From NCBI RefSeq assembly GCF_045037415.1, contig NZ_CP173438.1: 64,000 nt of DNA; one strand, given 5' to 3'. This DNA comes from Escherichia coli. Lineage in GTDB: Bacteria; Pseudomonadota; Gammaproteobacteria; Enterobacterales; Enterobacteriaceae. The position numbers were made by a program, and so were the translations under genes. Numbering within the stretch: position 1 is the first letter of the stretch; each line of letters begins with the position of its first letter. Shown here piece by piece: positions 36,877 through 61,047 of the stretch. The notes beneath the pieces were generated by a model. It was not told the DNA's origin. It saw only the letters and a program-made list of their open reading frames with translations, and ran no database searches.

Positions 36877-37116
<240 letters not shown>

Positions 37117-41448: not shown

Positions 41449-41455
41449 TAAAAAG

Positions 41456-41475
41456 CGCCATCTAACGATGGCGCG
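41456..41475. terminator. Bidirectional terminator between convergent ydcO and ydcL
   Basis: stem gcgccatc/gatggcgc with taac loop; minus-strand U-run (ttttatt). Confidence 0.6.
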
Positions 41476-41482
41476 TCTGGAA

Positions 41483-42151
41483 CTACTTTTTGTTAACGTC
41501 AAACATGGTGGCATCGGTCGCCATGTCATCAATAACTTGTTTAATATTTTCGAAAGCCATTGGCGTACTTTCGTTATTCAGGTCTTTACCTTCGCCCTGA
41601 CGAACGACTTTGATAACCGGTTTATTAGTCGCTGCATCAATCAGCTCACCTTCAAAATACAAGCGAGTATCCATGGTACGGTGGCCTGTAGCCATTTGCG
41701 TCCCCGCAACCACTAATGCAACAGGAACCACTTCATAGAATTGCAGCCCTTCTTTGCTGGTATCTACACCGGTAATGGCCCCACGGAAAATCAGACTACG
41801 CGGCCCAGCGGTGGTAACCAGTGGTTTACGCTGCGCTATCGCTTCTTTCATTTCGGTGTTGGTATAGTTCAAAATTTTATCCAGAACTTTCTGCCCTACC
41901 TGGGTAGAAGGTTTCGGTACCGGATAATAAGTGATTGGGTTCCAGACGATGCTGTCATATTTGCTTTGATCAAAACTCGGGTCTACCCAACGTAAAACAG
42001 GTTTACCTGTTGCCGAGGTTGTTTCTTTTAAATCAGAGTAATTGTTTAAAAAACCAGAATATTTATCTGGCTGGGTGATTTTAGAGGCACAACCAGACAG
42101 AGCCAACAAGCCGCATAAAGCTGCAACTTTCGCAAATGATGTGGTACGCAT
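41483..42151 (-). CDS. ydcL: Lipoprotein YdcL (222 aa)
   Basis: ORF 41483..42151; signal peptide with lipobox LSGC. Confidence 0.85.
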   Translation of the reverse strand: MRTTSFAKVAALCGLLALSGCASKITQPDKYSGFLNNYSDLKETTSATGKPVLRWVDPSFDQSKYDSIVWNPITYYPVPKPSTQVGQKVLDKILNYTNTEMKEAIAQRKPLVTTAGPRSLIFRGAITGVDTSKEGLQFYEVVPVALVVAGTQMATGHRTMDTRLYFEGELIDAATNKPVIKVVRQGEGKDLNNESTPMAFENIKQVIDDMATDATMFDVNKK

Positions 42152-42453
42152 GAATAGTTTCCTGAGATGATTATATTACTTTTTAAGTTATAGCAAAAAG
42201 CGCCGCTTCGTGTTGTGGCAAAAAAAGTGTTGGTGAAAATAAATTTTTTAGCCCCTTTTCAGACGACATAGTCAATGCCGAAAAAGGGGCTAAGTCAATC
42301 ATCAGTAGTTAAATTTCAGTACGTTAAGCGGCTAAAAAACTTCGACTACTGTGATTAATTTCACATCCCTTCGATAAAAAATATGCTTACCGAAAAGAAG
42401 AACAGTAAACCATCTCAGCGTGGGGAATTTTCACGCGCTTTGTTCTTACCGGA

Positions 42454-43047
42454 TCATTTTTTACGTGCCAGCATCGTGGCGAAACGCAGTTTAATACGAT
42501 TACCGTTGGCGTCGGTGCGGTGCAGCTCGCCGACGTCTTCATTGTATTTCACCATCTCCCAGCCTTCGTAATATCGACGTAATTCCCCCTCTTTGAAGGC
42601 AAACGGGAAGCCGACGGTACATGGATAATCAGCGGTATCCATCGCCGCCACAATCAGGTTGTAACCGCCAGGTTTAGCGCAACGTTGCATATTGGCAATC
42701 AGCCCTGGGATGGTTTTAGCCTCAAGGAACATCAGCACCACAGTCGAAAGAATAAAATCGTACTGTCCATCAAATGTGAGGTTATTCAGATCAACGACCC
42801 GGGTGTGTAAATTATCCAGATTTTCAATGGACTTAATGCGCTCGACGTTGGCGATACTCATGGCATTTTTATCCCATGCGTCAACATCATAACCATTGGC
42901 TGCCAGGTAAAGACTGTTACGACCATTGCCACAGCCCAGATCCAGCGTTTTACCCGGTTTAACCACTTTCACCGCTTCCAGCACTTCAGAGTGTGTGCGG
43001 GTTAATTCATATTTATCAGTAAAATAGTTTTCATCACGAATGATCAT
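42454..43047 (-). CDS. tehB: Tellurite methyltransferase (197 aa)
   Basis: ORF 42454..43047; SAM-binding motif [11 protein letters not shown]. Confidence 0.9.
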
Positions 43048-44036
43048 TCTTTGTCCTCTGCTTTCATTAAAACGGCGCGCTCGGTTCTGACTAACAATTT
43101 TCCCTGCATCAGAAGCGCAAAAGTACGGATGAGCAGTATTGCAATAATAAAATTGGTAAAGATAAACAGCGGCACCGCCAGCGTATGGAAAAATCCATTA
43201 TCGCTGCCACTCCCCAGATGCAAACCGGTGGTTGCCAGTGCAGATACGCCGAACGAGAAACTCCAGAATGAAGCATTAAATGGCTGGGAGAGATACCATG
43301 GCATCAGACATAGCATAAACAGCAGTTGCAGCAGTCCATAACCGAAAAGCATTTTCGCCAGCGTGTCACCCTCGCCGCCGTTGACGCTCAGCCAGGCACT
43401 ACAGGCCACCAGCGCAGGAGCGAGCTGAATGCCGAGTGATGTCCTCAGTGCCGTGGGTAATTCTCCCGAACTGCGCAGACGCTGCAAGATCACCGGTTCC
43501 AGGCTTAGCCATGAGAAAACGCCTGCGCCTAAAAACACCAGACCGGCGTCGGTGTAGCCCAACGCACCACAGGCCATTGCGCTGATAAAGTTGTTGGCAA
43601 CTGTCGGCAGATACAGTCCAGGCGTGGTAGCTTCTTCAGGGTGAGATCCACGCCATAATCCCGCAGTTTGCCAGGCGGCATAAGCCAACTGAACCACGAC
43701 ACCAAAACTGAACAGGCACACCGCCAGTGGGCGAAACCACGGAACAAAACCAATCGCCACCAGCATCGTCGTTGCCGGAAACAAACTCACAAAACTGCTC
43801 AGCACTGGATGGCGCACTTCTGCCAGCACGCTATGCGGAAAGCGTATGAGTCGGGTAATAAATGCGCCAGTCAATAATCCCCAGATGATCATCGCCAGAA
43901 TCACCAGCCCATCCCCCAACCAGTGGCTGACCTGCCAAACCTGGCTGGCATAGCGCCAGGCAAATCCCATCCCTATCGTCCCCAACACAATACCAAAGTA
44001 GCCTGCCGGCAAATTGAGCACTTTATCGTTCTGCAT
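43044..44036 (-). CDS. tehA: Tellurite resistance / dicarboxylate transporter family membrane protein (330 aa)
   Basis: ORF 43044..44144 trimmed to [30 protein letters not shown]; stop overlaps tehB start. Confidence 0.88.
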
Positions 44037-44159
44037 CTTCTTACTCATTTTGTTTAATTTATAAAGTATATTTGAAATGCATTTTATGGAATTTTCTCGA
44101 GCATAGCCAGAGCCGCAGAATTTGCTACGGTTATAGTAAGTCACCTGTGGGAAAACGCT

Positions 44160-45140
44160 ATGCGTAAATATCGTCTAAGTGAAGAACAGCGAGCCTTTAG
44201 TTATCAGGAAGATGGCACTAAAAAAAGTGTGTTATTACGGCAAATTATCGCCATGAGCGATTTTAACGATGTGATAGCAGGAAGCGCTGGCGGCTGGATC
44301 GATCGCGAAACGGTGTTAGCACAGGAAGGAAATTGCTGGATTTACGACCAGAATGCTATTGCGTTCGGCGGAACGGTGATTTCCGGGAATACGCGTATCA
44401 CCGGCACCAGCGTGCTGTGGGGAGAGGTTTACGCAACGGATAATGTCTGGATCGATAATAGTGAAATCAGCCAGGGTGCATATATAAGTGACAGTGTCAC
44501 CATTAGTGACTCATTAGTTTGCGGTCAATGTAGAATATTTGGTCACGCCTTAATTGATCAACATTCTATGATCGTCGCCGCACAAGGCTTAACGCCCGAC
44601 CATCAACTCCTGCTACAAATTTATGATCGCGCAAAGGTTAGCGCCTCGCGTATTGTCCACCAGGCACAAATTTATGGCGATGCCGTCGTCCGGTATGCTT
44701 TTATTGAACATCGCGCCGAAGTTTTTGATTTTGCCAGTATTGAAGGTAATGAAGAGAACAACGTCTGGCTATGCGATTGCGCTAAAGTTTACGGTCACGC
44801 GCAGGTGAAAGCTGGCATAGAAGAAGATGCCATTCCGACGATTCATTACAGTTCACAGGTGGCGGAATATGCCATTGTGGAAGGTAATTGTGTGTTAAAA
44901 CATCATGTCTTGATTGGCGGAAATGCCGTGGTACGTGGCGGACCGATTCTGCTCGACGAGCACGTTGTAATACAAGGTGAGAGCCGTATTACAGGTGCGG
45001 TGATAATTGAAAACCATGTGGAGTTAACTGACCACGCCGTCGTTGAAGCCTTTGATGGCGACACGATTCATGTCCGTGGTCCAAAAGTCATTAACGGCGA
45101 GGAGCGCATTACGCGAACGCTGCTGGCAGGGTTATTGTGA
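44160..45140 (+). CDS. ydcK: Beta-helix repeat protein YdcK (326 aa)
   Basis: ORF 44160..45140. Confidence 0.83.
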
Positions 45141-45671
45141 ATCGATAATACGCGCGTATAAGTTCACATCATCATAGGCATCATTCAGAAACTCAGCCTG
45201 TTTCAGGCAACCTTCAAGGATAAAACCATTGCGCAACGCTACCTGGTTGCTTTGCGGATTGTCCACCCGACATTTGATCACGAAGCGTCTAAGTTCACCA
45301 GACTGAGCGTAATGATGAATCAATGCCTGCAGCGCCTGAGAAATGATCCCCTGCCCCTGATGAGGTTCGTCCAGCCAGTAGCCGATTTCAGCGGTTTTAT
45401 TCAGTGGTTCAATACGATTAAAAGAGATAACGCCGATAAGTTCATCTTCTTTGAAAATCATGAACATTTTGGCATAGCCGCGTTGATGCAACATCACATT
45501 ACCCTGCACCGTTTTTCGCGTGTCCTCTTCACTTTGAACAAACTGCGGCCAGTTTAGCGACTGCTGTAACCAGGTTTTATTTTTACAGATTAACTGATAA
45601 AGAAGTGTGACATGACTTTCCGCAACAGCATGTAATTCAAGTGATTCGCTTACTTTTATCGTTTCAGTCAT
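45132..45671 (-). CDS. rimL: Ribosomal protein L7/L12-serine N-acetyltransferase (179 aa)
   Basis: ORF 45132..45686 trimmed to ATG 45671 ([16 protein letters not shown]); GNAT motif [10 protein letters not shown]. Confidence 0.85.
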
Positions 45672-45733
45672 CTTATCTCCAGTCAATCCATGCAGCTGTT
45701 AAAAAAGCCGCCTGGCTGGCGGCTTAGGAAAGT

Positions 45734-45958
45734 TTACACCTCTTTGACGCTCACCTGCTGCAGGATTTTGAGCATCTCATCTTTTAACTGTAGCTTTTGT
45801 TTTTTCATGCGGACCACTTCCGCATTGTACCCTCGACCGTCGGAACCTTCCTTTCTGGCAATTTCATGATCAAGTTTATTGTGTTTATCGAACAAGGACA
45901 TAAAGCGAGGATTTTCGTTTTTCAGACGGGATATTAAATCTCGGTATTCTGGAAACAT
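45734..45958 (-). CDS. ydcH: DUF465-family small protein (74 aa)
   Basis: ORF 45734..45964 trimmed to ATG 45958 (MFPEYRDLISRLKNENPRF). Confidence 0.8.
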   Translation of the reverse strand: MFPEYRDLISRLKNENPRFMSLFDKHNKLDHEIARKEGSDGRGYNAEVVRMKKQKLQLKDEMLKILQQVSVKEV

Positions 45959-46097
45959 ACGCACTCCCTGTTAGTGGCTGACAAGGTGTATCTGAAATAC
46001 ACACCAGCAGATTACTCATTTAACTTAGGAAAAAATGCGAGCGGGATCGTGTTTAACCAGACGGCACCTCCCGAAGAAGATGCCGAAGAAAAAACGA

Positions 46098-47753
46098 TTA
46101 ACTCATCACGCGGTCATCAACATACTGACGTTTATCCGGCGCTGGCGGGAAATACTGATATAACCATGTTTCACTGATAGCGTCGCCCTGACAACGCAGA
46201 TACATCCGCATATCGACCGGATCAGTGGAGTCCGAAGTCGGATACCAGTCAAACTGAATACGATAACCATCAATGGGTTCAATATAGAGAATTTCGATTT
46301 GCTTCGCTTCCCCACTGGAAAGCGTAATCACCGGCTCAATGCCTTTTGGCGCGGCAGCTTTCAGATCGCCACCAACGAAATCGACGGCAAAACGTCGCGC
46401 CCATTTTTCGGGATAGTGTTCACCTGGCGCCCAACCTTCCGGGAAACCGCCCATGCCGGTACGCGTCGCCATAACGCGCGCTAATGGGCAATGAACAGGC
46501 GGTTGCGCACTCCAGTACAGACGATACTGGAATGCAAACTCATCACCCGCTTTTACAGCTTTTTCTGGCTGCCAGAAGCAAACAATGTTATCCAGCGTTT
46601 CCCCCGTAGTTGGGATTTCCATCAGGCCGATGGTGCCCTTACCCCACTTGTTACGCGGTTCCACCCACAGACTTGGGCGTTTGTTATACCAGCCCATAAT
46701 GTCCTGATAATGGGAGAAATCACGATCCAGTTGCAATAAACCAAACCCTTTCGGGTTGTTGTCGGTGTAAGCATTGAACTGCAATTTTTGCGGATTGTTC
46801 AGCGGACGGCAAATCCACTCGCCGTTGCCCCGCCACATGGACAGACGATCAGAGTCATGGATTTGCGGATGAATGGTGTCGCACATCCGACGTTCATTAG
46901 TACCGCAGCTGAACATACTGGTCATCGGTGCAATGCCCAGCTGTTTAATGTCTTTGCGCGCATACAGGTGATTTTCCACATCCATAATCACCTGATTTTT
47001 CTCACAATGGATAGTGAACTTATAGGCACCAGTAATGCTGGCGCTATCGAGCAACGCATAAACGGTAAAGGTGGTTGCCCCTGGTTTTACCGTATCAAAC
47101 CAGAAGGCGGTAAAGTCGGGGAACTCTTCTTTGCTGTCGGTGTAAGTGTCGATCGCCAGGCCGCGGGCCGACAAACCGTATTGATATGTGTCATCAACGG
47201 CGCGGAAATAACTCGCGCCGAGGAATGATACTACATCACGGCGCGCCAGTTCGGGGGCTTTAAACACGCGAAAACCGGCAAAACCGAGATCGCTTTGCCC
47301 TTCTAATTGTTTGGTATCCACACCCGCATCGTTGTATTTGAACAACTCCGGGCGAAAGTGAATTTCACGCGCCAGATGTGTTGCTGGATCTACAGAAAAC
47401 ATACGAACGCGGCGACGGAATCCCATTCCCATATGGAAAAACTGAGCGTCCAGTTGACGGTTCTCAACGTTATGCCAGAGCGATTTTTCGGCGTCGTATT
47501 GAATACTGTTATAAGCCTGCGGCGTCATTGTCGCCAGAGTATCAGGTAACGGACGTGGTGCACCACGCCATGCTGTTTGCGCTAAGTCGTGCGCCATTGA
47601 CTGTAGAATGGAGAAGTCAAAACGCTGGGTTTGCCCGTCGGCAATATCAGAATCGGCCGCGAATGCCGCCTGAGAAAAAAGAGAAGCAATGCCGCTGGTA
47701 CCGCACACGGCGGCCATAGCCATTGAACCTTTAATAAATCGTCTACGATCCAT
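46098..47753 (-). CDS. mdoD: Glucans biosynthesis protein D, periplasmic, Tat-exported (551 aa)
   Basis: ORF 46098..47753; twin-arginine signal [16 protein letters not shown]... Confidence 0.9.
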
Positions 47754-47977
47754 ACCTGAAAGTGAGTCCTTCTGGTGTTGTGAATGGTCCCGCGCTGGTC
47801 ATTTTCAGCGGCAAGAAAGTGCTTATTTATGACCGCTCACTCTAGACAATATTTATTAATAATCCAATTGTTGAAATCAGAGAATATGCATAAATTGGCA
47901 TTTTTTTTATGTCGATGGGATGAGCCTGATTCGTTTGTAAAATCAGGCAAATTTTTGCAAAGGCGGATGGTCAGAAT

Positions 47978-49321
47978 TTAAAGCAAACCACAGCGACGTT
48001 TACTGCGTTCTTCCGCTTCCTGATAAAGCTGGAACTCATCCAAAACCGGACACCCCAACGCCTGCTCAAATGCTTCGCGACTGGCATCACCGTGATTGCA
48101 TGCCTGCGTTTCATTACCCAGATTTGACTGGAAGATCCCCGCCGCGCTAACGGGCAAGAAATCTTCATAGGTAATGGGTTGCGCCACTACCCAACCACGT
48201 TCTATTAAGGGCTGTGGATCGTCTCCGGGATGAATCGCCTGACGATGCGCCTCACCCGAAGGCGTCAGACGGTACCGGAACCATCCCAGCCCTTGCTGAC
48301 GCATTAAAAACTCACTGTCAGGAAAAGTGCGGAAGGTTTCCTGTAAATGCATTTGGTGAGTGAGATTATCCTGCCCGGTTCCAGCGTTCCGCAGAAGATC
48401 ATCATACAGTTGTCGCCCTTTCGGCGTTAATGCCACACCACGCTGCTCAATTTCACCAAAGCGCGCGGTATGTGTGCCCTGTTTCTGCCCCGCAAACAAC
48501 ACCGTCTCTTCCAGTGCTTTAAAGCTGGTCTGGCGTAGTAAAATCGGCACCTCGCGGCGCGGCGGCCCTTCGATCAGAATTTTGGGTTCAATTCCGCATT
48601 CAGGCATCATCGACTGCACCCGGTCAATATCCAGCGTGCGTGGCGTCAGGTGGTTGATATGGCATCCAGGAAAACAGACCACATCAGCAATCAACCGATG
48701 TTCTTTGTGCAAGGCGCGATAGGTTTTTTCATCTACCGTTGCTGACTGGTGCCAGCGAAACGTTTCCAGGGCTTCCTGCACAAACTCCTGTGCCTGTGTT
48801 TCGTTAAAACCGCCCCGCTGCTCATATTCCTGTAACAGTTGTCGACAACGTGGGGTGAAGATATCGCGCTGACGCAGAATCTCCGCCGCTTTCTGGCGTA
48901 ATAATTCGTTCTCGATAAGCTCAAGGCGGAGTAATGAGGTAAAAACGCGGAAGGGATTACGCGCCAGAGAAGCAGCATCAATGGGCCGAAATGCTGTCGA
49001 ATGTACCGGCACCCCTGCCTGCGAGAGATCGTAATAGCTCACCGGGTACATCCCCATAATGGCAAACATCCGCCGAAGAGTAGCAAGCTCTTGTGCAGTC
49101 CCAACGCGAATCGCCCCATGACGTTCAACATTCAGTCGCGCCAGTTCGTCTGCATTTACCATTTTTTCGTGCAGTTGAGGATTGTTTTCCAGCACCGCCA
49201 GATTTACATCAGCTACCAGTTCCAGCAGCGTGCCGTACTGCGGAACTTCTTGCTGGTACATGGCTGACATTGCCTGCGAAAACTGTTCCCGAATCTCATC
49301 CGCCGTGATGCTGTTCGCCAT
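47978..49321 (-). CDS. ydcJ: DUF1338-family metalloenzyme-like protein (447 aa)
   Basis: ORF 47978..49321. Confidence 0.85.
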   Translation of the reverse strand: MANSITADEIREQFSQAMSAMYQQEVPQYGTLLELVADVNLAVLENNPQLHEKMVNADELARLNVERHGAIRVGTAQELATLRRMFAIMGMYPVSYYDLSQAGVPVHSTAFRPIDAASLARNPFRVFTSLLRLELIENELLRQKAAEILRQRDIFTPRCRQLLQEYEQRGGFNETQAQEFVQEALETFRWHQSATVDEKTYRALHKEHRLIADVVCFPGCHINHLTPRTLDIDRVQSMMPECGIEPKILIEGPPRREVPILLRQTSFKALEETVLFAGQKQGTHTARFGEIEQRGVALTPKGRQLYDDLLRNAGTGQDNLTHQMHLQETFRTFPDSEFLMRQQGLGWFRYRLTPSGEAHRQAIHPGDDPQPLIERGWVVAQPITYEDFLPVSAAGIFQSNLGNETQACNHGDASREAFEQALGCPVLDEFQLYQEAEERSKRRCGLL

Positions 49322-49537
49322 AGTGTCTGCCTCCAGTGGTCAGTAATCTGGAGTGTAGGTAACCGCATTCACTCCGGCTGGAAGAATTTACAAACTGTGA
49401 TCTCGCCGCGAAAACATCAATATTATCCATTTTGCTGTAACATAGTTGCTTTAATTGTTAATAATATTTTGCAATCAAGTTATCATAATAAAACAACTTC
49501 ACTTGTCAGCGACACCGCTTCGTTTTTAACATCGCTT

Positions 49538-50461
49538 ATGGAAAAAAATAGTCTGTTTAGTCAGCGCATCCGTTTGCGCCACCTTCATACATTCGTAGCT
49601 GTCGCACAACAAGGAACTTTGGGGCGCGCGGCTGAAACCCTTAATTTGAGTCAACCTGCGCTCTCTAAGACATTGAATGAACTGGAGCAGCTGACGGGCG
49701 CTCGCTTGTTTGAGCGTGGTCGTCAGGGGGCGCAACTTACCTTACCCGGCGAACAATTTTTAACGCATGCAGTCAGAGTTCTTGACGCCATCAACACTGC
49801 CGGACAGTCGCTTCATCGTAAAGAAGGTCTTAATAATGATGTCGTCAGGGTTGGTGCGCTACCTACTGCGGCACTAGGGATATTACCTTCGGTTATAGGT
49901 CAGTTTCATCAGCAACAAAAAGAGACGACCTTGCAAGTTGCGACAATGAGTAACCCTATGATTCTGGCGGGTTTAAAAACCGGGGAAATCGATATCGGCA
50001 TTGGTCGGATGTCAGATCCTGAACTGATGAACGGGCTTAATTACGAACTACTGTTTCTTGAATCGCTGAAGCTGGTTGTCCGCCCTAATCACCCGCTACT
50101 TCAGGAGAACGTAACGCTAAGCCGGGTGCTGGAATGGCCGGTCGTTGTATCACCAGAAGGCACTGCGCCACGCCAGCATTCAGATGCATTAGTGCAGAGC
50201 CAGGGATGTAAAATTCCTTCGGGTTGTATCGAAACGCTGTCTGCTTCGCTATCTCGTCAACTTACGGTTGAATACGATTACGTGTGGTTTGTCCCTTCTG
50301 GCGCTGTAAAAGACGACCTGCGTCATGCCACGCTGGTAGCCCTGCCTGTTCCGGGACATGGTGCAGGCGAACCGATTGGAATACTGACCCGCGTAGATGC
50401 GACGTTCTCTTCTGGTTGCCAGTTGATGATTAACGCTATTCGAAAATCAATGCCGTTCTGA
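49538..50461 (+). CDS. ydcI: LysR-family transcriptional regulator (307 aa)
   Basis: ORF 49397..50461 trimmed to ATG 49538 (MEKNSLFSQRIRLRHLHTFVAVAQQGTLGRAAETLNLSQPALSKTL), LysR HTH. Confidence 0.85.
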   Translation: MEKNSLFSQRIRLRHLHTFVAVAQQGTLGRAAETLNLSQPALSKTLNELEQLTGARLFERGRQGAQLTLPGEQFLTHAVRVLDAINTAGQSLHRKEGLNNDVVRVGALPTAALGILPSVIGQFHQQQKETTLQVATMSNPMILAGLKTGEIDIGIGRMSDPELMNGLNYELLFLESLKLVVRPNHPLLQENVTLSRVLEWPVVVSPEGTAPRQHSDALVQSQGCKIPSGCIETLSASLSRQLTVEYDYVWFVPSGAVKDDLRHATLVALPVPGHGAGEPIGILTRVDATFSSGCQLMINAIRKSMPF

Positions 50462-50498
50462 AAGGTGAAGGGATCTGTCGATCCCTCCTTTAACATTT

Positions 50499-51020
50499 TC
50501 ACACCGTAGCAAAACTAACTGGTTCACCCGCTCCTCGTGGTTCTGCCGACACAGAATGTTTGTTCAGACGGAATACGTCCACCGCCTCAGTTAGTCGTGC
50601 CGCCTGTTCTTCAAGGGACACCGCCGCCGTTGAGGCCTCTTCTACCAGAGAAGCATTCTGTTGCGTCACCTTATCCATTTCAGAAATCGCCTGGCTAACC
50701 TGCGTTATGCCTCGACTTTGTTCACCCGAGGCGGTGGCGATTTCCTGCATGATATGTGTGACACTCGCGACGGCATCAACAATAGTGCACATGGTTTTCC
50801 CTGCCGTTGCCACCTCATCCGATCCCAGGTCAATTAACCTGACTGATTCACTGATCAAGCCTTCAATCTCTTTCGCCGCCTGGGCGCTGCGGCTTGCGAG
50901 TGTCCGTACTTCGCTGGCGACAACGGCAAATCCACGGCCTTGCGAGAGTAACGAATGATTAAACTGGCTAAACCGAATGACGAAAAATTCTGGAAAGCAG
51001 CACGCGATTTCGTCAGGTGA
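50499..51020 (-). pseudogene. 5'-truncated methyl-accepting chemotaxis protein (trg-like) remnant: C-terminal signalling domain only
   Basis: In-frame translation ...[34 protein letters not shown]...VSFATV*; MCP homology starts near 50942; upstream in-frame segment (to stop at 51021..51023) is unrelated and has no ATG/GTG/TTG; no TM, periplasmic or HAMP region. Confidence 0.6.
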
Positions 51021-51099
51021 TTATTTTCGTCCCTAAGGAAACCACATAGGATGCTCACGGGTGCCTGAGACTTTCTGTTTTCAGGCTAACCTGGAATCA

Positions 51100-51145
51100 G
51101 AAAGACGAAGGCCCCGACCGATATTTCTATCAACCGAGGCCAACG

Positions 51146-51175
<30 letters not shown>
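51100..51175 (-). ncRNA. sokB: Expected position of the SokB antisense RNA (approximate)
   Basis: Placement by analogy with hok/sok loci where the antisense RNA overlaps the mok translation-initiation region; exact ends not determinable from sequence. Confidence 0.3.
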
Positions 51176-51354
<179 letters not shown>

Positions 51355-51425
51355 GGGCAAGCGCGGGGGTTTTCCCCGCGCATCTGACTAGCGGATTCAT
51401 TTTCTCATGGCCCCCCTTTTACACT

Positions 51426-51599
51426 TCAGTTAGTGCATGTTTTTTTCGATGCACTAATAGAACCATCATTACAGACAAATTTGCCGCCTGCCGTACAGTG
51501 TGAGATCCCCCCTTTCGAACCAGAACAGGGTTTGCGCCCGGCATCGGCATAAAAGGAAACAAGCGTTCCCATAACCAGGATAAGTGCCAGTTTTTTCAT
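51426..51599 (-). CDS. ydcA: Small secreted protein YdcA (57 aa), not in ORF track
   Basis: Translation MKKLALILVMGTLVSFYADAGRKPCSGSKGGISHCTAGGKFVCNDGSISASKKTCTN*; ggagg SD; signal peptide. Confidence 0.75.
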   Translation of the reverse strand: MKKLALILVMGTLVSFYADAGRKPCSGSKGGISHCTAGGKFVCNDGSISASKKTCTN

Positions 51600-51769
51600 A
51601 TAACCTCCATGATTTATCGAATCTTATGTTCGATTTGAACGTTATACGCTGGTTTATTTTGATACCGTTGATGAGATCAAAGATCGGGTGAATTGATTAA
51701 AGATAAGCCAGATGGACGTATAGACAAGGATTATGGTTTTATTTGTCATACAAATAAATATAATAGGCG

Positions 51770-51833
51770 CTTCCGATGTAGGCCCGTATTCTTCGCCTGT
51801 ACCACGGGTCGGTTTTAGTACAGGCGTTTTCTT
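51770..51833 (+). ncRNA. rydC: RydC small regulatory RNA
   Basis: cttccgatgtaggcccgtattcttcgcctgtaccacgggtcggttttagtacaggcgttttctt matches the RydC sequence as recalled; terminal hairpin cgcctgtac/gtacaggcg plus U tract; sits between ydcA and cybB. Confidence 0.7.
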
Positions 51834-51843
51834 TAAATATCCT

Positions 51844-52374
51844 TCAGGAACGTTTACGTGGCATCATGCGTAGAAGTGTGTTGTCCTTCCAGAAATAGTG
51901 GTGTGCCAGTGCAGCCGCAGCGTGCAACCCGATGACAAAATATCCCAGATTCGCCAGCGTTTCATGCCACGACTTTAAGCTATCAACCCGCTCGAAATTG
52001 GCCTCTGAAGCGTAAGGCATCGTCAAACCAAACGCAAACCACGGGTTGCCCCGGTTATACATCATCACCAAACCAATCACCGGCAGCGCAATAAACAGGA
52101 GATAAATCACCAAATGGCCCAAATGCGCCAGTCCCGTCATCATCGGTTTTGGCTTAGGTATAATCGGCGGGGTTGGGTATTTCAGCCTTAACAAAAGACG
52201 AACCACCATCAGTACGAGAATTGAGATGCCACAGGAAACATGAATCATGTTGATGAGGGGCCGATCGCTACGTGGGAAGAAACCACGAAACTCCATTGCG
52301 CAATACGCTACGATAACCAGCAAAAAGACCAGCCAGTGAATGCTGATTTGTAACCTTGAGTATTTATTTCCCAT
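51844..52374 (-). CDS. cybB: Cytochrome b561 (176 aa)
   Basis: ORF 51844..52410 trimmed to ATG 52374 (MGNKYSRLQISIHWLVFLLV); heme-ligand histidines in TM helices. Confidence 0.88.
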   Translation of the reverse strand: MGNKYSRLQISIHWLVFLLVIVAYCAMEFRGFFPRSDRPLINMIHVSCGISILVLMVVRLLLRLKYPTPPIIPKPKPMMTGLAHLGHLVIYLLFIALPVIGLVMMYNRGNPWFAFGLTMPYASEANFERVDSLKSWHETLANLGYFVIGLHAAAALAHHYFWKDNTLLRMMPRKRS

Positions 52375-52562
52375 AACATTTCCTGCTTTAACATAATTTG
52401 CCGTTAACATAACGGGCTTTTCTTAAAATTTCATTAAATATTGTTCACCCGTTTTCAGTACGTTACGTTTCACTGCAAGAATGTAGATTGCCCATCCCGC
52501 CATCCTGGTCTAAGCCTGGAAAGGATCAATTTTCATCCGAACGTTCCTGACAGGAGAAGACC

Positions 52563-53564
52563 ATGAGTAAAGTTGGTATTAATGGTTTTGGTCGTATCGG
52601 TCGACTGGTGTTGCGTCGATTACTTGAAGTCAAAAGCAACATAGACGTTGTCGCTATTAATGATCTCACTTCCCCAAAAATTCTCGCCTACCTGCTGAAA
52701 CATGATTCAAACTACGGACCGTTCCCCTGGAGCGTTGATTATACGGAAGATTCACTTATCGTTGATGGGAAAAGTATCGCGGTTTACGCCGAAAAAGAGG
52801 CTAAAAATATTCCGTGGAAAGCGAAAGGCGCAGAAATCATTGTCGAATGTACAGGCTTTTATACCTCCGCCGAGAAATCGCAGGCGCATCTTGATGCTGG
52901 CGCGAAGAAGGTGTTGATTTCCGCCCCTGCCGGTGAAATGAAAACCATCGTTTATAACGTCAATGACGACACTCTGGATGGCAACGACACCATTGTTTCC
53001 GTGGCGTCATGCACCACTAACTGCCTTGCGCCGATGGCCAAAGCCTTGCATGACAGTTTCGGGATAGAAGTCGGCACGATGACGACCATTCATGCCTATA
53101 CCGGCACCCAGTCACTGGTGGATGGCCCGCGTGGTAAAGATTTACGTGCTTCACGCGCAGCGGCAGAAAATATCATTCCCCACACTACGGGGGCGGCAAA
53201 AGCCATTGGCCTGGTGATCCCGGAACTGAGCGGCAAACTGAAAGGTCATGCGCAACGCGTGCCGGTGAAAACAGGTTCGGTCACTGAACTGGTGTCGATT
53301 CTCGGAAAAAAAGTGACTGCCGAAGAGGTGAACAACGCGCTTAAAAAGGCGACAAACAATAACGAGTCATTTGGTTATACCGATGAAGAAATAGTCTCTT
53401 CCGATATCATTGGCAGCCATTTCGGTTCGGTGTTTGATGCCACGCAAACGGAAATTACCGCCGTGGGCGATTTACAACTGGTGAAAACGGTCGCCTGGTA
53501 CGATAACGAATATGGCTTCGTCACGCAGCTTATTCGCACCCTCGAAAAATTCGCTAAACTCTGA
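52563..53564 (+). CDS. gapC: Glyceraldehyde-3-phosphate dehydrogenase paralog, intact (333 aa)
   Basis: ORF 52563..53564 uninterrupted; NAD-binding [10 protein letters not shown] and catalytic [10 protein letters not shown]. Confidence 0.88.
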
Positions 53565-53571
53565 CGCGCAC

Positions 53572-53595
53572 AGGCGGAGGAAAAAACCTCCGCCT
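53572..53595. terminator. Hairpin between convergent gapC and aldA
   Basis: stem aggcggagg/cctccgcct with aaaaaa loop, followed by ctttc. Confidence 0.5.
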
Positions 53596-53605
53596 CTTTC
53601 ACTCA

Positions 53606-55045
53606 CTACGACTGTAAATAAACCACCTGGGTCTGCAGATATTCATGCAAGCCATGTTTACCATCTGCGCCGCCAATACCGGATTTACGCCATCCAGCGT
53701 GGAAGCCTTGCATAGCTTCGAAGTTTTCACGGTTGATGTAAGTTTCACCAAACTTCAGCCCTTTAATGGCTTTCATCGCGACGTTCAGATTTTGGGTATA
53801 GATTGATGAGGTCAGGCCGTAATCACTGTCATTAGCCATTGAGATAGCCTCTTCCAGCGTGTCAAATGCGACCACCGGCAGAACCGGACCAAAGGTTTCC
53901 TCATGCATAATCGACATTTCCTGGCGAACATCCAGCAGCAATGTCGGCGGATAATAATATCCTTTCCCCTCTACCGCTTTGCCACCCAACGCCACTCTCG
54001 CCCCTTCTTCTACTGCGCGCGCCACTTTTTGCTCAACCCTTTCCAGCGCCGCGGCGTTAATCAACGGTCCCATCGCAATGTCGTTGCGTTCAGCAGGGTT
54101 ACCAAATTGAACCGCCTGCATCGCTTCACCCAGCCGATTGACGAACTGATCATAAATGCTTTTCTGTACATAAACACGTTCTGCACAGTTACACACTTGC
54201 CCACTATTAATGACGCGTGAATCAACGATGGCTTTGACTGCCAGTTCAATATCGGCATCGTCCATTACGATAGCCGGTGCTTTACCCCCCAATTCCAGGC
54301 ACACTTTGGTGATGTTTTTCGCCGCAGTCGCCATAATCTTTTCACCTGCAGAGACGCTGCCTGTCATACTGACCATTGCAACCTTTGGGTTACCCGCCAG
54401 TTCTTGCCCAACGTTTTCACCACGCCCGAGTACAAGGTTAAACACGCCGCGCGGAAGGCCTATTTCATCAACGATTTTGGCGAATGCAATCGCATTGTTT
54501 GGCGTAAATTCACTGGGTTTAATGACGATGGTATTACCGGTCAAAAGAGCGGGAGCCATTTTGCGGGCAATGAGGAAGAACGGAAAGTTCCACGGCAGAA
54601 TGCCGGTAGTCACGCCAAGCGCACGTTTAAACAGAAGGATATTTTCTCCTGGACGATCGCTTTGAATAATCTCGCCCTCGTAACGCCGTGCCCACTCCGC
54701 CATATAATCGATATAGTCCGCAGTAAAAGCCACTTCGACTTCAGCCAACTGCTGGATCTTGCCCCCTTCTTCGACAATCAGCGCACTGATTTCACTGGCA
54801 CGTTCCCGGATCCCGGCGGAGATTTTGCGCAACCAACTGGCGCGTTCAATAGCAGGCAACGCTTCCCATTCTGGTTGTGCACGTTCTGCTGCATCGATTG
54901 CCTTACGGGCATCCTCGGCCTGACCATCGGGAATGCGGGAAATGACAGCCTCTGTAGCAGGGTTAACCACATCAATCCATGCGTCTCCACGCCAGGTAAC
55001 AAACTGTCCATCGATATACATAGGATGTTGAACGGGTACTGACAT
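53606..55045 (-). CDS. aldA: Lactaldehyde/aldehyde dehydrogenase A (479 aa)
   Basis: ORF 53606..55045; ALDH motifs (ELGGKAP, GQVCNCAER). Confidence 0.92.
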   Translation of the reverse strand: MSVPVQHPMYIDGQFVTWRGDAWIDVVNPATEAVISRIPDGQAEDARKAIDAAERAQPEWEALPAIERASWLRKISAGIRERASEISALIVEEGGKIQQLAEVEVAFTADYIDYMAEWARRYEGEIIQSDRPGENILLFKRALGVTTGILPWNFPFFLIARKMAPALLTGNTIVIKPSEFTPNNAIAFAKIVDEIGLPRGVFNLVLGRGENVGQELAGNPKVAMVSMTGSVSAGEKIMATAAKNITKVCLELGGKAPAIVMDDADIELAVKAIVDSRVINSGQVCNCAERVYVQKSIYDQFVNRLGEAMQAVQFGNPAERNDIAMGPLINAAALERVEQKVARAVEEGARVALGGKAVEGKGYYYPPTLLLDVRQEMSIMHEETFGPVLPVVAFDTLEEAISMANDSDYGLTSSIYTQNLNVAMKAIKGLKFGETYINRENFEAMQGFHAGWRKSGIGGADGKHGLHEYLQTQVVYLQS

Positions 55046-55254
55046 GGGCGACTCCTGTGATTTGCATGTTTGTTTTTGGTAAATTTATTGTTAATTAACA
55101 TCAATCATCAGAGAGACGGCATCGTGAAAGGACAATTCTGTGAAGGGCTTCATAAAAACAAGTGTAAAAGGAATTAAAGGCAGAAATAAAAGGCAGAAAT
55201 AAAAGTCAGAAATCATGCCCGTTTGCAAACAAGTGGTTCACAAACGGGCAATTT

Positions 55255-56055
55255 TTAACGTAACGAGCGACTTTCCATCGCCTCGATGAGCACCGCATCA
55301 TGTTTCAGCGTTTGCCATGCCTGAATGACTTCTGCCGGAAAATCAACGTGAACGATAAAATCTCGCCCGCGGGGGCCGTAGCCATCGCTATCATCGCGTA
55401 AACGCGGCAGCTCGCCAGTGAGTAGCGATAGATAACGCTCAACCGGCCATAATCCTTGCAACGGATTAACAAAGATTACACTCTCTGCGTTATTTCCTAA
55501 CTGAGGAACGAATCCGGGATAACTTAACCAGCGTGGTGCATCGGGATTATCCCCGGTTATACGGCGGAACGTCGCCATCGTGCGCCGCTGCATGGTGGGG
55601 TCCTGAACAACGATAGCCGTATGAACTCGTTCTACAGCCTGATTCAATAACGCGATGCTAAAGCGTGCGTTTTCACCGCAGTTTGTTGACTGGTCTTCAA
55701 TCCAGATTTTTTCATGCGGAATATGCCAGAACTGATGAGCGATATCCGCCAGAATGGTAGCTTCTGCTCTGCCAGTGGTGCGGATAGTGTTGTAGTGCGG
55801 ATGCTGTGCGATGGCGCTATACAAAAAAGTTGTCGAGTGACCGATACCACCACTAATCAGTAAAGGAATTTGCTGATCGCGGGCAATCTTACATGCCGCA
55901 TCGATAGTCGGCATAACCGCATTGCCTGCAAGGATCACGCAATCGGCCTGATACGGCACCTCACCGGAGAAATCATCCTGCGCCAGCCACTGTCCGATAA
56001 CATTTATGGCATCTATGGTTGCCGGCGAAAGCGTCGGAAACGGGGTAATATTCAT
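55255..56055 (-). CDS. ydcF: DUF218-domain protein YdcF (266 aa)
   Basis: ORF 55255..56055. Confidence 0.85.
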
Positions 56056-56327
56056 GGTTCCTCCTTATCGTTCCCTTAAGAATACTGCGTGAGATAATAG
56101 TGAGAAGCGGAGCACTCTGAAAGGAGGAAGTCGTATTTCCTGAACTGCCACTCCGCAAGCCTGACATATCTTTTAAGGAAATGCTGTAGATAAACATTAT
56201 TCATCTTGCAGCAGAGAATTGTATTTTTCTGAACTCCTGAATTTTTTCCCTTATCGTTTTTAGAATTAATAAAAAACCCGGCGCTAAATGCTTACCGGGT
56301 TTTAGATTTATCAGGCAAATAGCAGTG

Positions 56328-59300
56328 TTAACCGCTAATCTGCTCCATCGCCTGCAAAATACGCTTATCCGAAATCGGATAAGGCGTGCCAAGTTGTTGA
56401 GCGAAGTAACTAACGCGCAGCTCTTCTATCATCCAGCGGACCTCTTTCACGTCTTCATCCTCACGACGTGCAGGCGGTAGTTTGTTGATCCATTGCTGCC
56501 ACGCCTGCTGGACGTTTTCGACTTTCAGCATCTGAGCACGGTCGCGATGTGGATCGACCGCCAGTTTTTCCAGTCGTTTTTCAATTGCCTGCAAATATCG
56601 CAGCGTGTCGCCCAGTCGTTTGAAGCCGTTACCAGTGACAAAACCGCGATACACCAGCCCGCCCATCTGCGCTTTAATGTCAGAAAGCCCCAGCGCCATG
56701 GTCATATCCACCCGCCCTTTCAGACGTTTGTTGATATTGAACACCGCAGTGAGGATTTGCTCGACCTGCTTCGCAATATCCACCACCGTGTCGTTCAGTT
56801 CAGCACGGACTTTTTCATGCAGCGCAGCAAAGCCTTCTTCCGTCCAGACCGGGCCACCATTGGCGTCGATCAGTTGATCCACACCGCAGGAGATACAGTC
56901 ATCGATCAGCTCCAGCACTTTGCCATACGGGTTAAAGTACAGCCCCAGCTTGGCTTTGTTTGGCAGCTTTTCGTGCAAGTACTTGATCGGCGATGGAATA
57001 TTTAGCAGCAGTAAACGGCGAAGACCGTTCCACATTGCCTGCTTCTGTTCCAGCGGGTTATCAAACAGTTTGATCGCTACGCTGTCACGCTCATCCACCA
57101 GCGCCGGCCAAGCCTTCACTTTGTAGTTGCCGCGCTTCTGCTCGTAGCTTTCCGGCAGTTGACCAAAACTCCAGATATGTAAACCGCTCTGCTCGATACC
57201 GTCATCCGCCACGGCAGACAGCGTTTCCTGCACTTTGCCTTTCAGGGCGTCTTTCAGATCCTGTAATGAGCGCCCTTCTTTTAGCTTCTTGTTTTTGTCA
57301 TCCACCACGCGGAAGGTGATTTTCAGGTGATCGGGCACCTGATCCCAGTGCCAGTCTTCGCGGTCAACGGTGACGCCAGTCATCCGCCGAAGCTCTCGTT
57401 CAAGGCTGTCGAGCAACGGCAATTCCAGCGGTGTGACGCGGCCTAAAAACGCTTCGGCATAGTTTGGCGCAGGTACAAAATTACGGCGTACCGGCTTCGG
57501 CAACGATTTAATCAGGGCGATGATCAGCTCACGGCGCAGGCCGGGGATCTGCCACTCAAACCCGCTCTCCTCAACCTGGTTAAGCAGCGGCAGCGGAATA
57601 TGTACGGTCACGCCGTCAGCATCTGCCCCCGGCTCAAACTGATAACTCAAACGCAGCTTGAGATTGCCCTGATGCCAGAAGTTCGGGTAATCCAGCTTGC
57701 TGATTTTTTCCGCCCCTTCTTTGATCAACATGCTCTTTTCAAAGTTGAGCAAATCAGGCGTTTCGCGGCTGACTTTTTTCCACCAACTGTCGAAATGGCG
57801 TGCAGAGATCACATCGTGACTGATGCGCTGGTCGTAGAACTCAAACAACGTTTCGTCATCCACCAGAATATCGCGGCGACGAGTTTTGTGTTCCAGCTCT
57901 TCTACTTCCGCCCGTAGTTTCAGGTTTTCGCGGAAGAATGCGTGACGCGTCTGCCAGTCACCTTCCACCAGCGCGTGGCGAATAAAGAGTTCACGACATA
58001 ACGCCGGATCGATCTGGCTGTAGTTGACCTTGCGCGCGGCAACAATCGGCAAACCATAAACAGTGACTTTTTCCGTTGCCATCACCGCGCCCTGCGCCCG
58101 TTCCCAGTGCGGTTCGCTGTAGGTGCGTTTAATCAAATGCTGAGCAACTGGCTCCACCCATTCCGGGTCGATCCGCGCAGCAATGCGCCCCCACAGGCGG
58201 CTGGTTTCTACCAGTTCCGCCACCATTACCCATTTCGGCGGCTTTTTGAATAAACCAGAACCGGGGAAGATGGAGAAACGCGCGTTACGTGCGCCGGTAT
58301 ATTCTTGTTTATCGGCATCTTTCATGCCGATATGCGAAAGCAAACCGGTCAGCAACGCAATGTGAATTTCGCGATAATCCGCCGGTTCGCTGTTAACCGG
58401 AATGCCAAGTTCTTTCACCACCTGGCGCAACTGGGTGTAGATATCCTGCCATTCGCGCACGCGCAGATAGTTGAGATAATCGGTACGACACAGGCGACGG
58501 AAGGCGTTTGAAGAAAGCGCCTTTTGCTGCTCGCCAAGATAATTCCACAGATTCACAAATGCCAGGAAGTCAGACTCTTTGTCGTGGAAGCGACGATGTT
58601 TTTCGTCAGCTGCCTGCTGTTTATCCATCGGACGCTCGCGCGGATCCTGAATGGAGAGCGCGGACGTGATAATCATCGCCTCACGCACGCAGCCATGTTT
58701 TTGCGCTTCCAGCACCATACGCGCCAGACGTGGGTCGACAGGCAACTGCGAGAGCTGACGACCGAGCGGCGTCAGTTTATAAGCACTTTGCTGTTCATCA
58801 GTGGTGATCGCGCCCAGTTCTTCGAGCAGACGCACGCCATCCTGGATATTGCGTTTATCCGGTGCTTCGACAAACGGGAATGCGGCGATATCGCCCAAGC
58901 CCAGTGCGGTCATCTGCAAAATAACCGAGGCCAGGTTGGTACGCAGAATCTCCGGATCGGTAAACTCCGGGCGCGAAAGGAAATCGTCTTCGGAATAGAG
59001 ACGAATACAGATCCCTTCGGACACACGACCACAGCGGCCTTTACGCTGATTAGCTGAAGCCTGCGAAATTGGCTCAATCGGCAAACGCTGCACTTTGGTG
59101 CGATAGCTGTAGCGGCTGATACGCGCTGTACCTGGGTCGATAACGTATTTAATACCCGGTACGGTCAGCGAGGTTTCCGCGACGTTGGTCGCCAGTACAA
59201 TGCGTCGCCCGCTGTGCGACTGGAACACGCGGTTCTGTTCGCTGTTGGAAAGCCGTGCATAAAGCGGCAAGATTTCGGTATGGCGTAAGTTCAGCTTGTT

Positions 59301-60230
59301 CAGCGCATCGGCGGTATCGCGAATTTCTCGCTCGCCGCTCATAAAGATCAGAATGTCGCCAGGGCTTTCCTGGCTCAGTTCGTCTACGGCGTCAAAAATC
59401 GCCTGCAACTGATCGCGCTCGGTATCATCGGCTTCTTCAACAATCGGGCGATAGCGCACTTCCACCGGATAGGTCCGACCGGAGACTTCGATAATCGGCG
59501 CATTATTAAAGTGGCGCGAAAAGCGTTCCGGGTCGATAGTCGCGGAAGTGATAATGATTTTTAGGTCAGGACGCCGCGGCAGCAACTCTTTCAAATAGCC
59601 GAGCAGAAAATCGATATTCAGGCTGCGTTCGTGCGCTTCGTCAATAATGATGGTGTCGTACTGCATCAGCAGGCGGTCTTGCTGGATCTCCGCCAGCAGG
59701 ATACCGTCGGTCATCAGCTTGACCATCGTGTTATCACTGACGTGATCGCTGAAACGCACTTTGTAACCGATGCAACCGCCCGGCTCCGTTTTTAGCTCTT
59801 CCGCAATACGGTTCGCCACCGTTCGCGCCGCCAGCCGACGCGGCTGGGTATGGCCGATCAGCCCTTTAATCCCGCGCCCCAGCTCCATACAGATTTTCGG
59901 TAGCTGAGTCGTTTTACCGGAACCCGTTTCCCCGGCGACGATCACCACCTGGTGGTCACGAATCGCTTCGAGAATGTCCTGCTTTTTCTGACTAACCGGC
60001 AAATTGTCCGGGTAAGTAATCTCCGGTCGTGCCGCTTCACGCAGCAGGACTTTCCCTGCCGCATGGTCAATCTCTTTCGCCATCTCCTGGAAAATGGCCT
60101 GTTGTGCATCAGGATTTTTAACCTTCTTCACACCGTGCAGACGGCGAGAAAAACGCAATCTGTCACGCAGCATCAACGAATCCAGCCGCTGCTGCAAGGC
60201 AGTAAAGGTCAATTTTTGTTGTTCTGTCAT
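56328..60230 (-). CDS. hrpA: ATP-dependent RNA helicase HrpA, DEAH-box (1300 aa)
   Basis: ORF 56328..60230; Walker A GETGSGKTTQ, DEAH box IIDEAHERS. Confidence 0.93.
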   Translation of the reverse strand: MTEQQKLTFTALQQRLDSLMLRDRLRFSRRLHGVKKVKNPDAQQAIFQEMAKEIDHAAGKVLLREAARPEITYPDNLPVSQKKQDILEAIRDHQVVIVAGETGSGKTTQLPKICMELGRGIKGLIGHTQPRRLAARTVANRIAEELKTEPGGCIGYKVRFSDHVSDNTMVKLMTDGILLAEIQQDRLLMQYDTIIIDEAHERSLNIDFLLGYLKELLPRRPDLKIIITSATIDPERFSRHFNNAPIIEVSGRTYPVEVRYRPIVEEADDTERDQLQAIFDAVDELSQESPGDILIFMSGEREIRDTADALNKLNLRHTEILPLYARLSNSEQNRVFQSHSGRRIVLATNVAETSLTVPGIKYVIDPGTARISRYSYRTKVQRLPIEPISQASANQRKGRCGRVSEGICIRLYSEDDFLSRPEFTDPEILRTNLASVILQMTALGLGDIAAFPFVEAPDKRNIQDGVRLLEELGAITTDEQQSAYKLTPLGRQLSQLPVDPRLARMVLEAQKHGCVREAMIITSALSIQDPRERPMDKQQAADEKHRRFHDKESDFLAFVNLWNYLGEQQKALSSNAFRRLCRTDYLNYLRVREWQDIYTQLRQVVKELGIPVNSEPADYREIHIALLTGLLSHIGMKDADKQEYTGARNARFSIFPGSGLFKKPPKWVMVAELVETSRLWGRIAARIDPEWVEPVAQHLIKRTYSEPHWERAQGAVMATEKVTVYGLPIVAARKVNYSQIDPALCRELFIRHALVEGDWQTRHAFFRENLKLRAEVEELEHKTRRRDILVDDETLFEFYDQRISHDVISARHFDSWWKKVSRETPDLLNFEKSMLIKEGAEKISKLDYPNFWHQGNLKLRLSYQFEPGADADGVTVHIPLPLLNQVEESGFEWQIPGLRRELIIALIKSLPKPVRRNFVPAPNYAEAFLGRVTPLELPLLDSLERELRRMTGVTVDREDWHWDQVPDHLKITFRVVDDKNKKLKEGRSLQDLKDALKGKVQETLSAVADDGIEQSGLHIWSFGQLPESYEQKRGNYKVKAWPALVDERDSVAIKLFDNPLEQKQAMWNGLRRLLLLNIPSPIKYLHEKLPNKAKLGLYFNPYGKVLELIDDCISCGVDQLIDANGGPVWTEEGFAALHEKVRAELNDTVVDIAKQVEQILTAVFNINKRLKGRVDMTMALGLSDIKAQMGGLVYRGFVTGNGFKRLGDTLRYLQAIEKRLEKLAVDPHRDRAQMLKVENVQQAWQQWINKLPPARREDEDVKEVRWMIEELRVSYFAQQLGTPYPISDKRILQAMEQISG

Positions 60231-60421
60231 AACGTTAGTGGGCAGTAGGCTGCCTGATTAATTTTCTTTTAAATGATAGATATAGAGTACCACATCGCAG
60301 CTTTCTATGCGTTGTTCAATAAATTCGAACATAGGCTTCGATTTATTGCGCTATCTCTGTGGCAGGATTGTGAATAAAGTGTCAACAAGCAACGGGGCAT
60401 TGCCCATTCAAATATCTATAA

Positions 60422-61036
<615 letters not shown>

Positions 61037-61047
61037 GATTTATGATG

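Follow-up and report, generated by a model that had tools for sequence, protein, structure and literature searches.

A truncated trg allele beside an intact hokB locus in Escherichia coli and its relation to the Tls-type allele

The trg remnant and its neighborhood

The DNA examined here is a 64-kb stretch of Escherichia coli contig NZ_CP173438.1 (hereafter the window, from whose first nucleotide all positions are counted), in which the genes follow the K-12 order, hglS-ydcI-[trg]-hokB-ydcA-cybB-gap-aldA. As in K-12, trg lies between ydcI and hokB, and this synteny identifies it as the ortholog of K-12 trg; residues 1–399 of the K-12 protein and a further 137 bp are, however, missing from the window. 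The genes and features of the locus are as follows.

47978..49321, minus strand: hglS/ydcJ
49538..50461, plus strand: ydcI (annotated)
50499..50943, minus strand: trg remnant, comprising the third base of codon 399, codons 400–546 and the stop codon at 50499..50501 (alignment to K-12 trg)
50944..51020, minus strand: 26 non-Trg in-frame codons, former trg-hokB intergenic DNA, with the frame closed by the stop codon at 51021..51023
51059..51210, plus strand: hokB mRNA leader/Sok target, intact (Rfam RF01794 'sok', full-length model, 108.4 bits against a gathering score of 59)
51147..51314, plus strand: mokB, 55 aa, intact (open reading frame list)
51205..51354, plus strand: hokB, 49 aa, intact (open reading frame list; Pfam HOK_GEF, E = 1e-23)
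51426..51599, minus strand: ydcA
51844..52374, minus strand: cybB
52563..53564, plus strand: gap/gapC, intact

The minus-strand frame translated from 51020 to 50499 ends in EPVSFATV followed by a stop codon, and its other limit is the stop codon immediately upstream at 51021..51023. Nucleotide alignment to K-12 trg (97.2% identity) showed that the remnant retains 147 codons and the stop, equivalent to residues 400–546 of the 546-aa K-12 Trg, from which it differs at five amino-acid positions (97% identity over the 147 residues). In the window frame, Pfam matched only positions 66–172 of the 172-position MCPsignal model (E = 4e-28); K-12 Trg carries TarH (residues 11–178), HAMP (221–271), and a complete MCPsignal domain (335–492). 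Neither TarH nor any other transmembrane-flanked ligand domain was found in the remnant by Pfam or by nucleotide alignment, codons 1–399 being deleted, and Pfam found no HAMP domain in the window frame. The first-pass annotation, which had described a 5'-truncated trg remnant encoding a C-terminal signaling tail of about 150 aa and devoid of transmembrane, ligand-binding, and HAMP regions, was therefore sound on these points. In the near-identical genome of strain SK1144, PGAP labels the same gene 'trg, incomplete, missing N-terminus'.

Homology to solved Tsr structures begins at Tsr residue 391/392 and extends over Tsr residues 391–520; residue 391/392 we take to lie beside or at the hairpin tip of the Tsr cytoplasmic domain. 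The signaling hairpin of the remnant is incomplete, since the Pfam match and the Tsr alignment do not cover both MCPsignal arms. Judged from these alignments, what has been retained is the C-terminal hairpin arm alone, beginning just beyond the tip and ending at the C-terminus. Such a fragment would be non-functional as a receptor, and Trg-dependent taxis toward ribose and galactose would be absent.

The segment that precedes the Trg-derived codons in the same frame had been described as a non-homologous stretch of 54 codons. A non-Trg segment does exist, but it comprises only 26 codons: 54 is the number of codons that precede the first in-frame ATG, GTG, or TTG (the TTG at 50858), and 28 of these are genuine Trg codons. 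The 26 codons are homologous to the K-12 locus (L002, from position 5978 onward), where the corresponding sequence is found upstream of the trg ATG at a distance of more than 137 bp. By this homology they are not foreign DNA; they are intergenic sequence of the K-12 type that is accidentally in frame with what is left of trg.

On the other side of the intergenic region, the locus contains a Hok/Gef open reading frame, an overlapping mok frame, and a conserved leader with its Sok target, the features by which a type I toxin-antitoxin system of the hok/sok kind is recognized. The HokB protein of SK1144 and that of K-12 share one accession (WP_001320773.1).

Deletion junctions and named alleles

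The breakpoint was mapped by blastn of window positions 50300..51700 against the corresponding locus of K-12 MG1655 (L002). Window 50300..50943 aligned with L002 4001..4644 and window 50944..51700 with L002 5978..6734, each at approximately 97% identity. The alignment to full-length trg that the first-pass annotation had proposed thus places the breakpoint exactly at 50943|50944. The sequence missing from the window relative to K-12 (L002 4645..5977) amounts to 1,333 bp and consists of 1,196 bp of trg coding sequence (codons 1–399) together with the 137 bp directly upstream of the ATG, the break in trg falling between the second and third bases of codon 399. The share of the coding sequence removed is 73%, in agreement with the earlier estimate of three-quarters. 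The features needed for the following comparison are these.

50943..50944, no strand: deletion junction 1 (blastn against the K-12 locus)
50953..51249, no strand: 297-bp segment deleted in the Tls type and present in the window (blastn against ST95 locus L003)
51168..51266, minus strand: 32-aa open reading frame antisense to hokB/mokB, starting GTG-MNVRIV (open reading frame list)

From junction 1, the match to the hokB leader (51059) is 116 bp away, the ATG of mokB (51147) 204 bp, and that of hokB (51205) 262 bp, so that the distance of about 200 bp to mokB/hokB given previously was accurate. The accompanying suggestion of a deletion extending from the hok/sok region has to be abandoned, as hok/sok is intact and the loss is confined to the 5' coding part of trg and the 137 bp upstream of it. 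Since the leader, mokB, and hokB all persist undamaged beyond the junction, hok/sok was neither the origin nor the target of this first deletion. No microhomology or repeats were found at the deletion ends of either junction, and at junction 1 the ends do not share a single base, indicating that microhomology played no part in guiding this deletion.

The 137 bp that are deleted relative to K-12 contain, in the K-12 sequence, a sigma-28-like motif (TAAGTAAT-N11-GCCGATGA) approximately 45–75 nt before the trg ATG. This motif was read by eye from the printed K-12 sequence against the known consensus; a regular-expression search for sigma-28 sites returned no match at the mismatch limits used. The trg promoter, of the sigma-28 (class 3 flagellar) type, probably lay in the deleted segment.

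Loss of Trg, and of Tap, from uropathogenic strains has been described before, that of Trg as a common trait (Lane et al., 2006, J Bacteriol, cited in PMC3559539 and PMC12623472), as has a truncated trg in the B2 phylogroup (Borziak et al., 2013, as cited in PMC3559539 and PMC12623472). On the descriptions given by these later papers, the truncated trg of B2 and uropathogenic strains shares its locus, junction, and retained cytoplasmic fragment with the window and shows no substantive difference from it, the window holding the ST131 copy of that allele. The single-deletion trg allele is accordingly a lineage-wide character of the B2 phylogroup that was already published, and not a strain-specific accident. 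Strains ECOR65 and 536 have a full-length trg.

The truncated Trg of B2 strains, once regarded as a pseudogene, has since been presented as Tls, the Trg-like signaling protein (Lee et al., 2025, EMBO J, PMC12623472). [quoted passage not shown] The main determinant of its activity is TlsN (MNVRIVLLS), notably the essential Arg4, while Trg residues 400–546, the fragment used in the Tls constructs, enhance activity, probably by dimerizing (PMC12623472). Strains deleted for tls show altered adherence to host cells and altered gut colonization, which in mice was improved (PMC12623472). In the accessible text of that paper the rearrangement figures as one deletion, and ST131 is not discussed; a literature search on trg in ST131 likewise gave no specific result. 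PGAP labels functional tls, too, as a pseudogene.

Comparison with the Tls-type loci (UTI89, S13 = DSM 10719, Nissle 1917, and LF82) showed that these share with the window the first deletion and the fragment Trg 400–546; the junction in the window is that of UTI89, Nissle, and LF82. They differ from it by the loss of a further 297 bp, a segment that in the window holds the hokB mRNA leader, sokB, the start of mokB, and hokB codons 1–15, and whose removal destroys sokB and the starts of both mokB and hokB. In the Tls type, junction 1 and this second junction are still separated by an island of 10 bp (GAGAGTAAC and one further base) that codes for LLS. The second deletion is absent from the window, where 50953..51249 is present and hokB, mokB, and the leader with the Sok target are intact.

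When 50953..51249 was removed from the window in silico, the result was an open reading frame with a GTG start that encodes (M)NVRIVLLS followed by Trg 400–546, and the loci of UTI89, Nissle, and LF82 indeed read GTG AAT GTC AGA ATC GTG TTA CTC TCG. The source of TlsN can be located in this way: its six MNVRIV codons correspond to window 51266..51249, antisense to hokB codons 15–21. In the window the same codons lie 306 bp further upstream on the minus strand and are not joined to the remnant. Translation of the window remnant accordingly revealed no TlsN, that is, no MNVRIVLLS with a positive residue at position 4, and the remnant lacks Arg4 and a canonical start. From these differences the window allele is predicted to be devoid of Tls activity.

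Because junction 1 is common to both allele types and shows no microhomology, it is most simply explained as a single historical event. Conversion of the Tls type into the window type by recombination would need a crossover inside the 10-bp island; together with the shared junction 1, this makes the window type the ancestral intermediate, from which the Tls type arose through the second deletion.

Enteropathogenic strain E2348/69 carries an allele that PMC12623472 calls a 'Tls variant', TlsN* (Fig. 1C, Fig. 5, Appendix Fig. S2). Its locus (L005) reads GTC ATT CGG TTT AGT CAG TTT AAT CAT TCG TTA CTC TCG CAA, with junction 1, the ATT codon, and the upstream codons as in the window and without the second deletion; the window sequence at the ATT matches TlsN* as given in Appendix Fig. 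S2. Since E2348/69 has the junction and the codons of the window, the 'M' of TlsN* is the ATT codon, as in the window. The form seen in the window is thus carried by ST131 and by a few other B2 lineages, of which E2348/69 is an example. The remnants of E2348/69 and the window differ at three amino-acid positions. E2348/69 alone has an insertion sequence cluster of approximately 5.6 kb in the hokB leader (at approximately window 51132–51134) and a shorter annotated Hok, the window being uninterrupted there.

A codon comparison over the 147 retained codons in eight alleles gave 11 synonymous and five non-synonymous codon differences between the window and K-12, two synonymous and one non-synonymous between the window and LF82, of the Tls type, and six synonymous and three non-synonymous between the window and UTI89. 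The most conserved receptor motif, which the window retains as QGRGF, is changed to QGPGF in the Tls of UTI89 and of Nissle, a change that can also be seen in the alignment of PMC12623472. Variable sites are shared mosaically across the allele types, which suggests recombination within B2. No frameshift or stop codon was found within the 147 Trg codons in any of the eight alleles read. An open frame free of frameshift and nonsense mutations counts against a reading as decay; it counts for little, since the majority of window-type genomes come from a single recent clone.

Start codons and expression signals

Three further features bear on whether the remnant can be expressed.

50976..50978, minus strand: ATT (Ile) codon, used as a start in some annotations and the start of 'TlsN*' (codon listing)
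50790..50858, minus strand: internal start-type codons inside the Trg-derived sequence (open reading frame list, codon listing)
51110..51141, minus strand: terminator-like hairpin of 14 pairs with a T-rich tail, between the sok region and the remnant (consensus scan)

Neither the open reading frame list nor the codon listing contains an ATG, GTG, or TTG between the stop codon at 51021..51023 and the Trg-derived part, which bears out the earlier statement that the upstream segment is closed by that stop and has no start codon. The first canonical start-type codon in frame after this stop is TTG 50858..50856, which opens a 119-aa reading frame; ATG 50792..50790 opens one of 97 aa and has AGGGAA 6 nt upstream. 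The ATT at 50978 is preceded by GCTTTCCAGAATTTTTCGTC, in which no Shine-Dalgarno-like element was found. No genome has an ATG at 50976..50978, a query carrying the ATG variant having given no 100% match. Gene models deposited for the DNA of the remnant reflect this ambiguity: the 97-aa version is found in at least 1000 contigs, the 119-aa version in 57, and the 159-aa version, with the ATT start, in 32.

A consensus scan of the minus strand from 50400 to 51700 detected no sigma-70-like site. The terminator-like hairpin found in the same scan probably belongs to sokB, to judge from its position, and read from 51141 to 51110 it would stop minus-strand transcripts arriving from upstream. Low-level initiation at ATT 50978, TTG 50858, or ATG 50792 is possible, although translation of the remnant to any useful level would not be expected.

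These observations bear on two alternatives in which the remnant would still act. According to the first, a Tls-like regulator of the TlsN* kind, initiated at ATT 50978, modulates FlhDC or motility in ST131. The frame is open, a 159-aa protein has been deposited, and the product would contain the same Trg 400–546 fragment that enhances the activity of Tls, besides being called a 'Tls variant' by its describers (PMC12623472). Against this stand the ATT start without a Shine-Dalgarno sequence, which is replaced by ATG in no genome, the lack of a promoter-like site upstream within the scanned region, and the hairpin that separates the remnant from the nearest transcript on the same strand. Furthermore, an mCherry fusion of TlsN*, the only form of it tested, displayed neither polar localization nor repression and is without the essential Arg4 (PMC12623472). 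We consider such a regulator in ST131 very unlikely.

According to the second, a fragment initiated internally, of 119 aa if translation starts at TTG 50858 or of 97 aa if it starts at ATG 50792, disturbs chemoreceptor arrays or adaptation enzymes. Over-expressed soluble receptor fragments can perturb CheA signaling; the 97-aa and 119-aa versions are also the most frequent automatic gene calls, and the AGGGAA before ATG 50792 is a point in favor of the shorter one. Yet the same codons are present in intact trg, where they are not known as starts, and the trg promoter region is deleted, with no promoter-like site found in its stead. The product would moreover be a single helix arm without the partner arm needed for a four-helix bundle, and even over-expressed Tls left chemotactic bias unchanged (PMC12623472). 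An interfering fragment of this kind appears most improbable. The reading that we favor, and regard as highly probable, is that the remnant is a pseudogene, either not expressed or without effect, and a surviving intermediate from the path to tls, with no taxis mediated by Trg.

Distribution of the alleles and a possible origin of tls

Junction-specific searches were performed in a sample of 5,426 complete E. coli genomes. In 4,500 of these, trg is uninterrupted across the left breakpoint. The junction of the window, followed by intergenic sequence, was present in 602 of the 5,426, and junction 1 with the second junction 10 bp further on, the arrangement of the Tls type, in 308. Among complete genomes the single-deletion allele without Tls is therefore the commoner of the two. 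Among the 602 are EC958, JJ1886, JJ1887, SE15, and many genomes labeled O25b:H4-ST131, and ST131 makes up their large majority; the double-junction set includes UTI89, IHE3034, Nissle 1917, clone D i14, ATCC 25922, LF82, and the type strain ATCC 11775. A genome deposited as 'strain S13' (NZ_CP107117.1), which is ST131-like, is not the S13 of the Tls paper (DSM 10719), which is UTI89-like.

The window itself is 100.0% identical over 24 kb (40000..64000) to O25b:H4-ST131 genomes, and over its whole 64 kb it has seven mismatches to strain SK1144. On this sequence identity, it belongs to the ST131 lineage or to something indistinguishable from ST131 here. A sequencing or assembly error had been named at the outset as something that could overturn the finding, and comparison of the locus in other strains was among the checks proposed. 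An artefact of this kind, or a lesion private to one isolate, would mean that the real genome has a full-length trg, a view for which no support was found. The comparison speaks plainly against it: the identical junction is found in 602 complete genomes, sequenced by many laboratories, and in another 308 with the added deletion, and the 24-kb identity to many ST131 genomes points the same way. We give the artefact practically no credence.

The two allele types may be arranged in a two-step scheme. In the first step, a deletion of 1,333 bp removed the sensor, both transmembrane helices, the HAMP domain, the N-terminal hairpin arm, and the probable promoter region of trg, leaving a start-less and presumably promoterless half-hairpin of Trg fused in frame to 26 intergenic codons. 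In the second, confined to sister B2 lineages, a deletion of 297 bp joined this stump to six codons from the strand antisense to hokB, including a GTG start, and so gave rise to Tls at the cost of hokB/sokB. Under this scheme the ST131 allele would represent an intermediate, still extant, in the origin of tls by two steps, and ST131 a natural tls-null with a working HokB, a proposal that we hold with evenly balanced confidence.

What this analysis adds beyond the accessible literature is modest: the coordinates of two nested deletions, the origin of TlsN in sequence antisense to hokB, the ATT start, and the census. The published picture of Trg loss in B2 strains is unchanged. For annotation, the locus is best called a trg pseudogene of the TlsN* or pre-Tls type, being neither a chemoreceptor nor Tls. 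ST131 is predicted to differ from ST95, ST73, and UTI89-like strains in two linked traits of one locus, having no flagellar repression by Tls and an intact HokB, whose gene is destroyed in ST95 and ST73; if this is true, ST131 would lack the liquid-specific repression of flagellar genes that UTI89-like strains possess. The two allele types would constitute a natural before-and-after pair for the emergence of a new regulator from a gene fragment and antisense toxin codons. Given that deletion of tls improved colonization in mice (PMC12623472), the tls-null state, if confirmed, could also bear on the standing of ST131 as a good colonizer of the gut.

The antisense frame behind TlsN and the ends of the trg remnant

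A short open reading frame runs antisense to hokB/mokB and accounts for the start of TlsN, the N-terminal peptide of Tls, the FlhDC-sequestering regulator of UTI89-type strains.

51168..51266, minus strand: 32-aa ORF antisense to hokB/mokB, beginning GTG-MNVRIV
50462..50498: 37 bp separating the stop codons of ydcI and the trg remnant, which run toward each other

The MNVRIV of TlsN in UTI89-type Tls corresponds to exactly these six antisense codons, joined to the trg stump by the second deletion, which the window lacks. The accessible text of PMC12623472 gives the rearrangement as one deletion, with mokB removed by it. At the other end of the remnant, the gap to ydcI holds a short perfect hairpin (GGGATC-TGTC-GATCCC) that is likely to be a terminator shared by both genes, untouched by the truncation.

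E2348/69 differs in that an insertion sequence (IS) cluster lies within its hokB leader and separates hok from the trg remnant; the insertion point corresponds to window 51132-51134. Its Hok ORF is annotated as 135 nt, as against 150 nt.

E2348/69 locus, ~640..6200 (NC_011601.1 1605539..1611095): IS cluster of ~5.6 kb with IS3-family fragments, ISEc21 and ISEc13

Neighboring genes and other degraded loci

51770..51833, plus strand: RydC small RNA, between ydcA and cybB
52563..53564, plus strand: gap (gapC), intact ORF for a 333-aa glyceraldehyde-3-phosphate dehydrogenase
62162..64000, minus strand: very large BigA/YdbA-type autotransporter gene, start only
36877..37113, minus strand: hicB, annotated as a partial pseudogene with its N-terminus missing
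3056..3333, plus strand: RelE/ParE-family toxin gene, annotated as frameshifted in SK1144, a near-identical genome
27550..27773, minus strand: two small gene fragments between pqqU and mnaT (SK1144 annotation)

Downstream of hokB, RydC matches Rfam RF00505 over the full model (90.5 bits; gathering score 48), and gap is intact; the K-12 MG1655 annotation lists the same gene as a pseudogene carrying both a frameshift and an internal stop. The SK1144 annotation shows the autotransporter gene as intact (record 2556481..2565084, ~8.6 kb); ydbA in K-12 is IS-disrupted.

hicB is another truncated toxin-antitoxin locus within the window, with no hicA listed beside it in the SK1144 annotation. The RelE/ParE-family toxin gene adjoins yddM, a HigA-family antitoxin. 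The two pqqU-mnaT fragments probably mark another deletion scar: one is a GntR-family regulator lacking both ends, the other a hypothetical protein lacking its C-terminus.

tls in sister strains and codon 402

UTI89 (L007), Nissle 1917 (L008) and LF82 (L009), each 1082..1525: tls, pseudogene in RefSeq/PGAP
50934..50936, minus strand: equivalent of Trg codon 402

Although experimentally characterized, tls is still a pseudogene in RefSeq/PGAP in all three strains ('incomplete; missing N-terminus'), and the adjoining hokB stump is labeled partial Hok/Gef. Functional and non-functional alleles are therefore not separable by annotation alone. Within the near-invariant receptor motif QGRGF, Arg402 is kept in the window, E2348/69 and LF82 and is replaced by Pro in Tls of UTI89, ST95-32 and Nissle 1917. 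This substitution suggests that Tls is no longer under the constraint imposed by CheA/CheW contacts.
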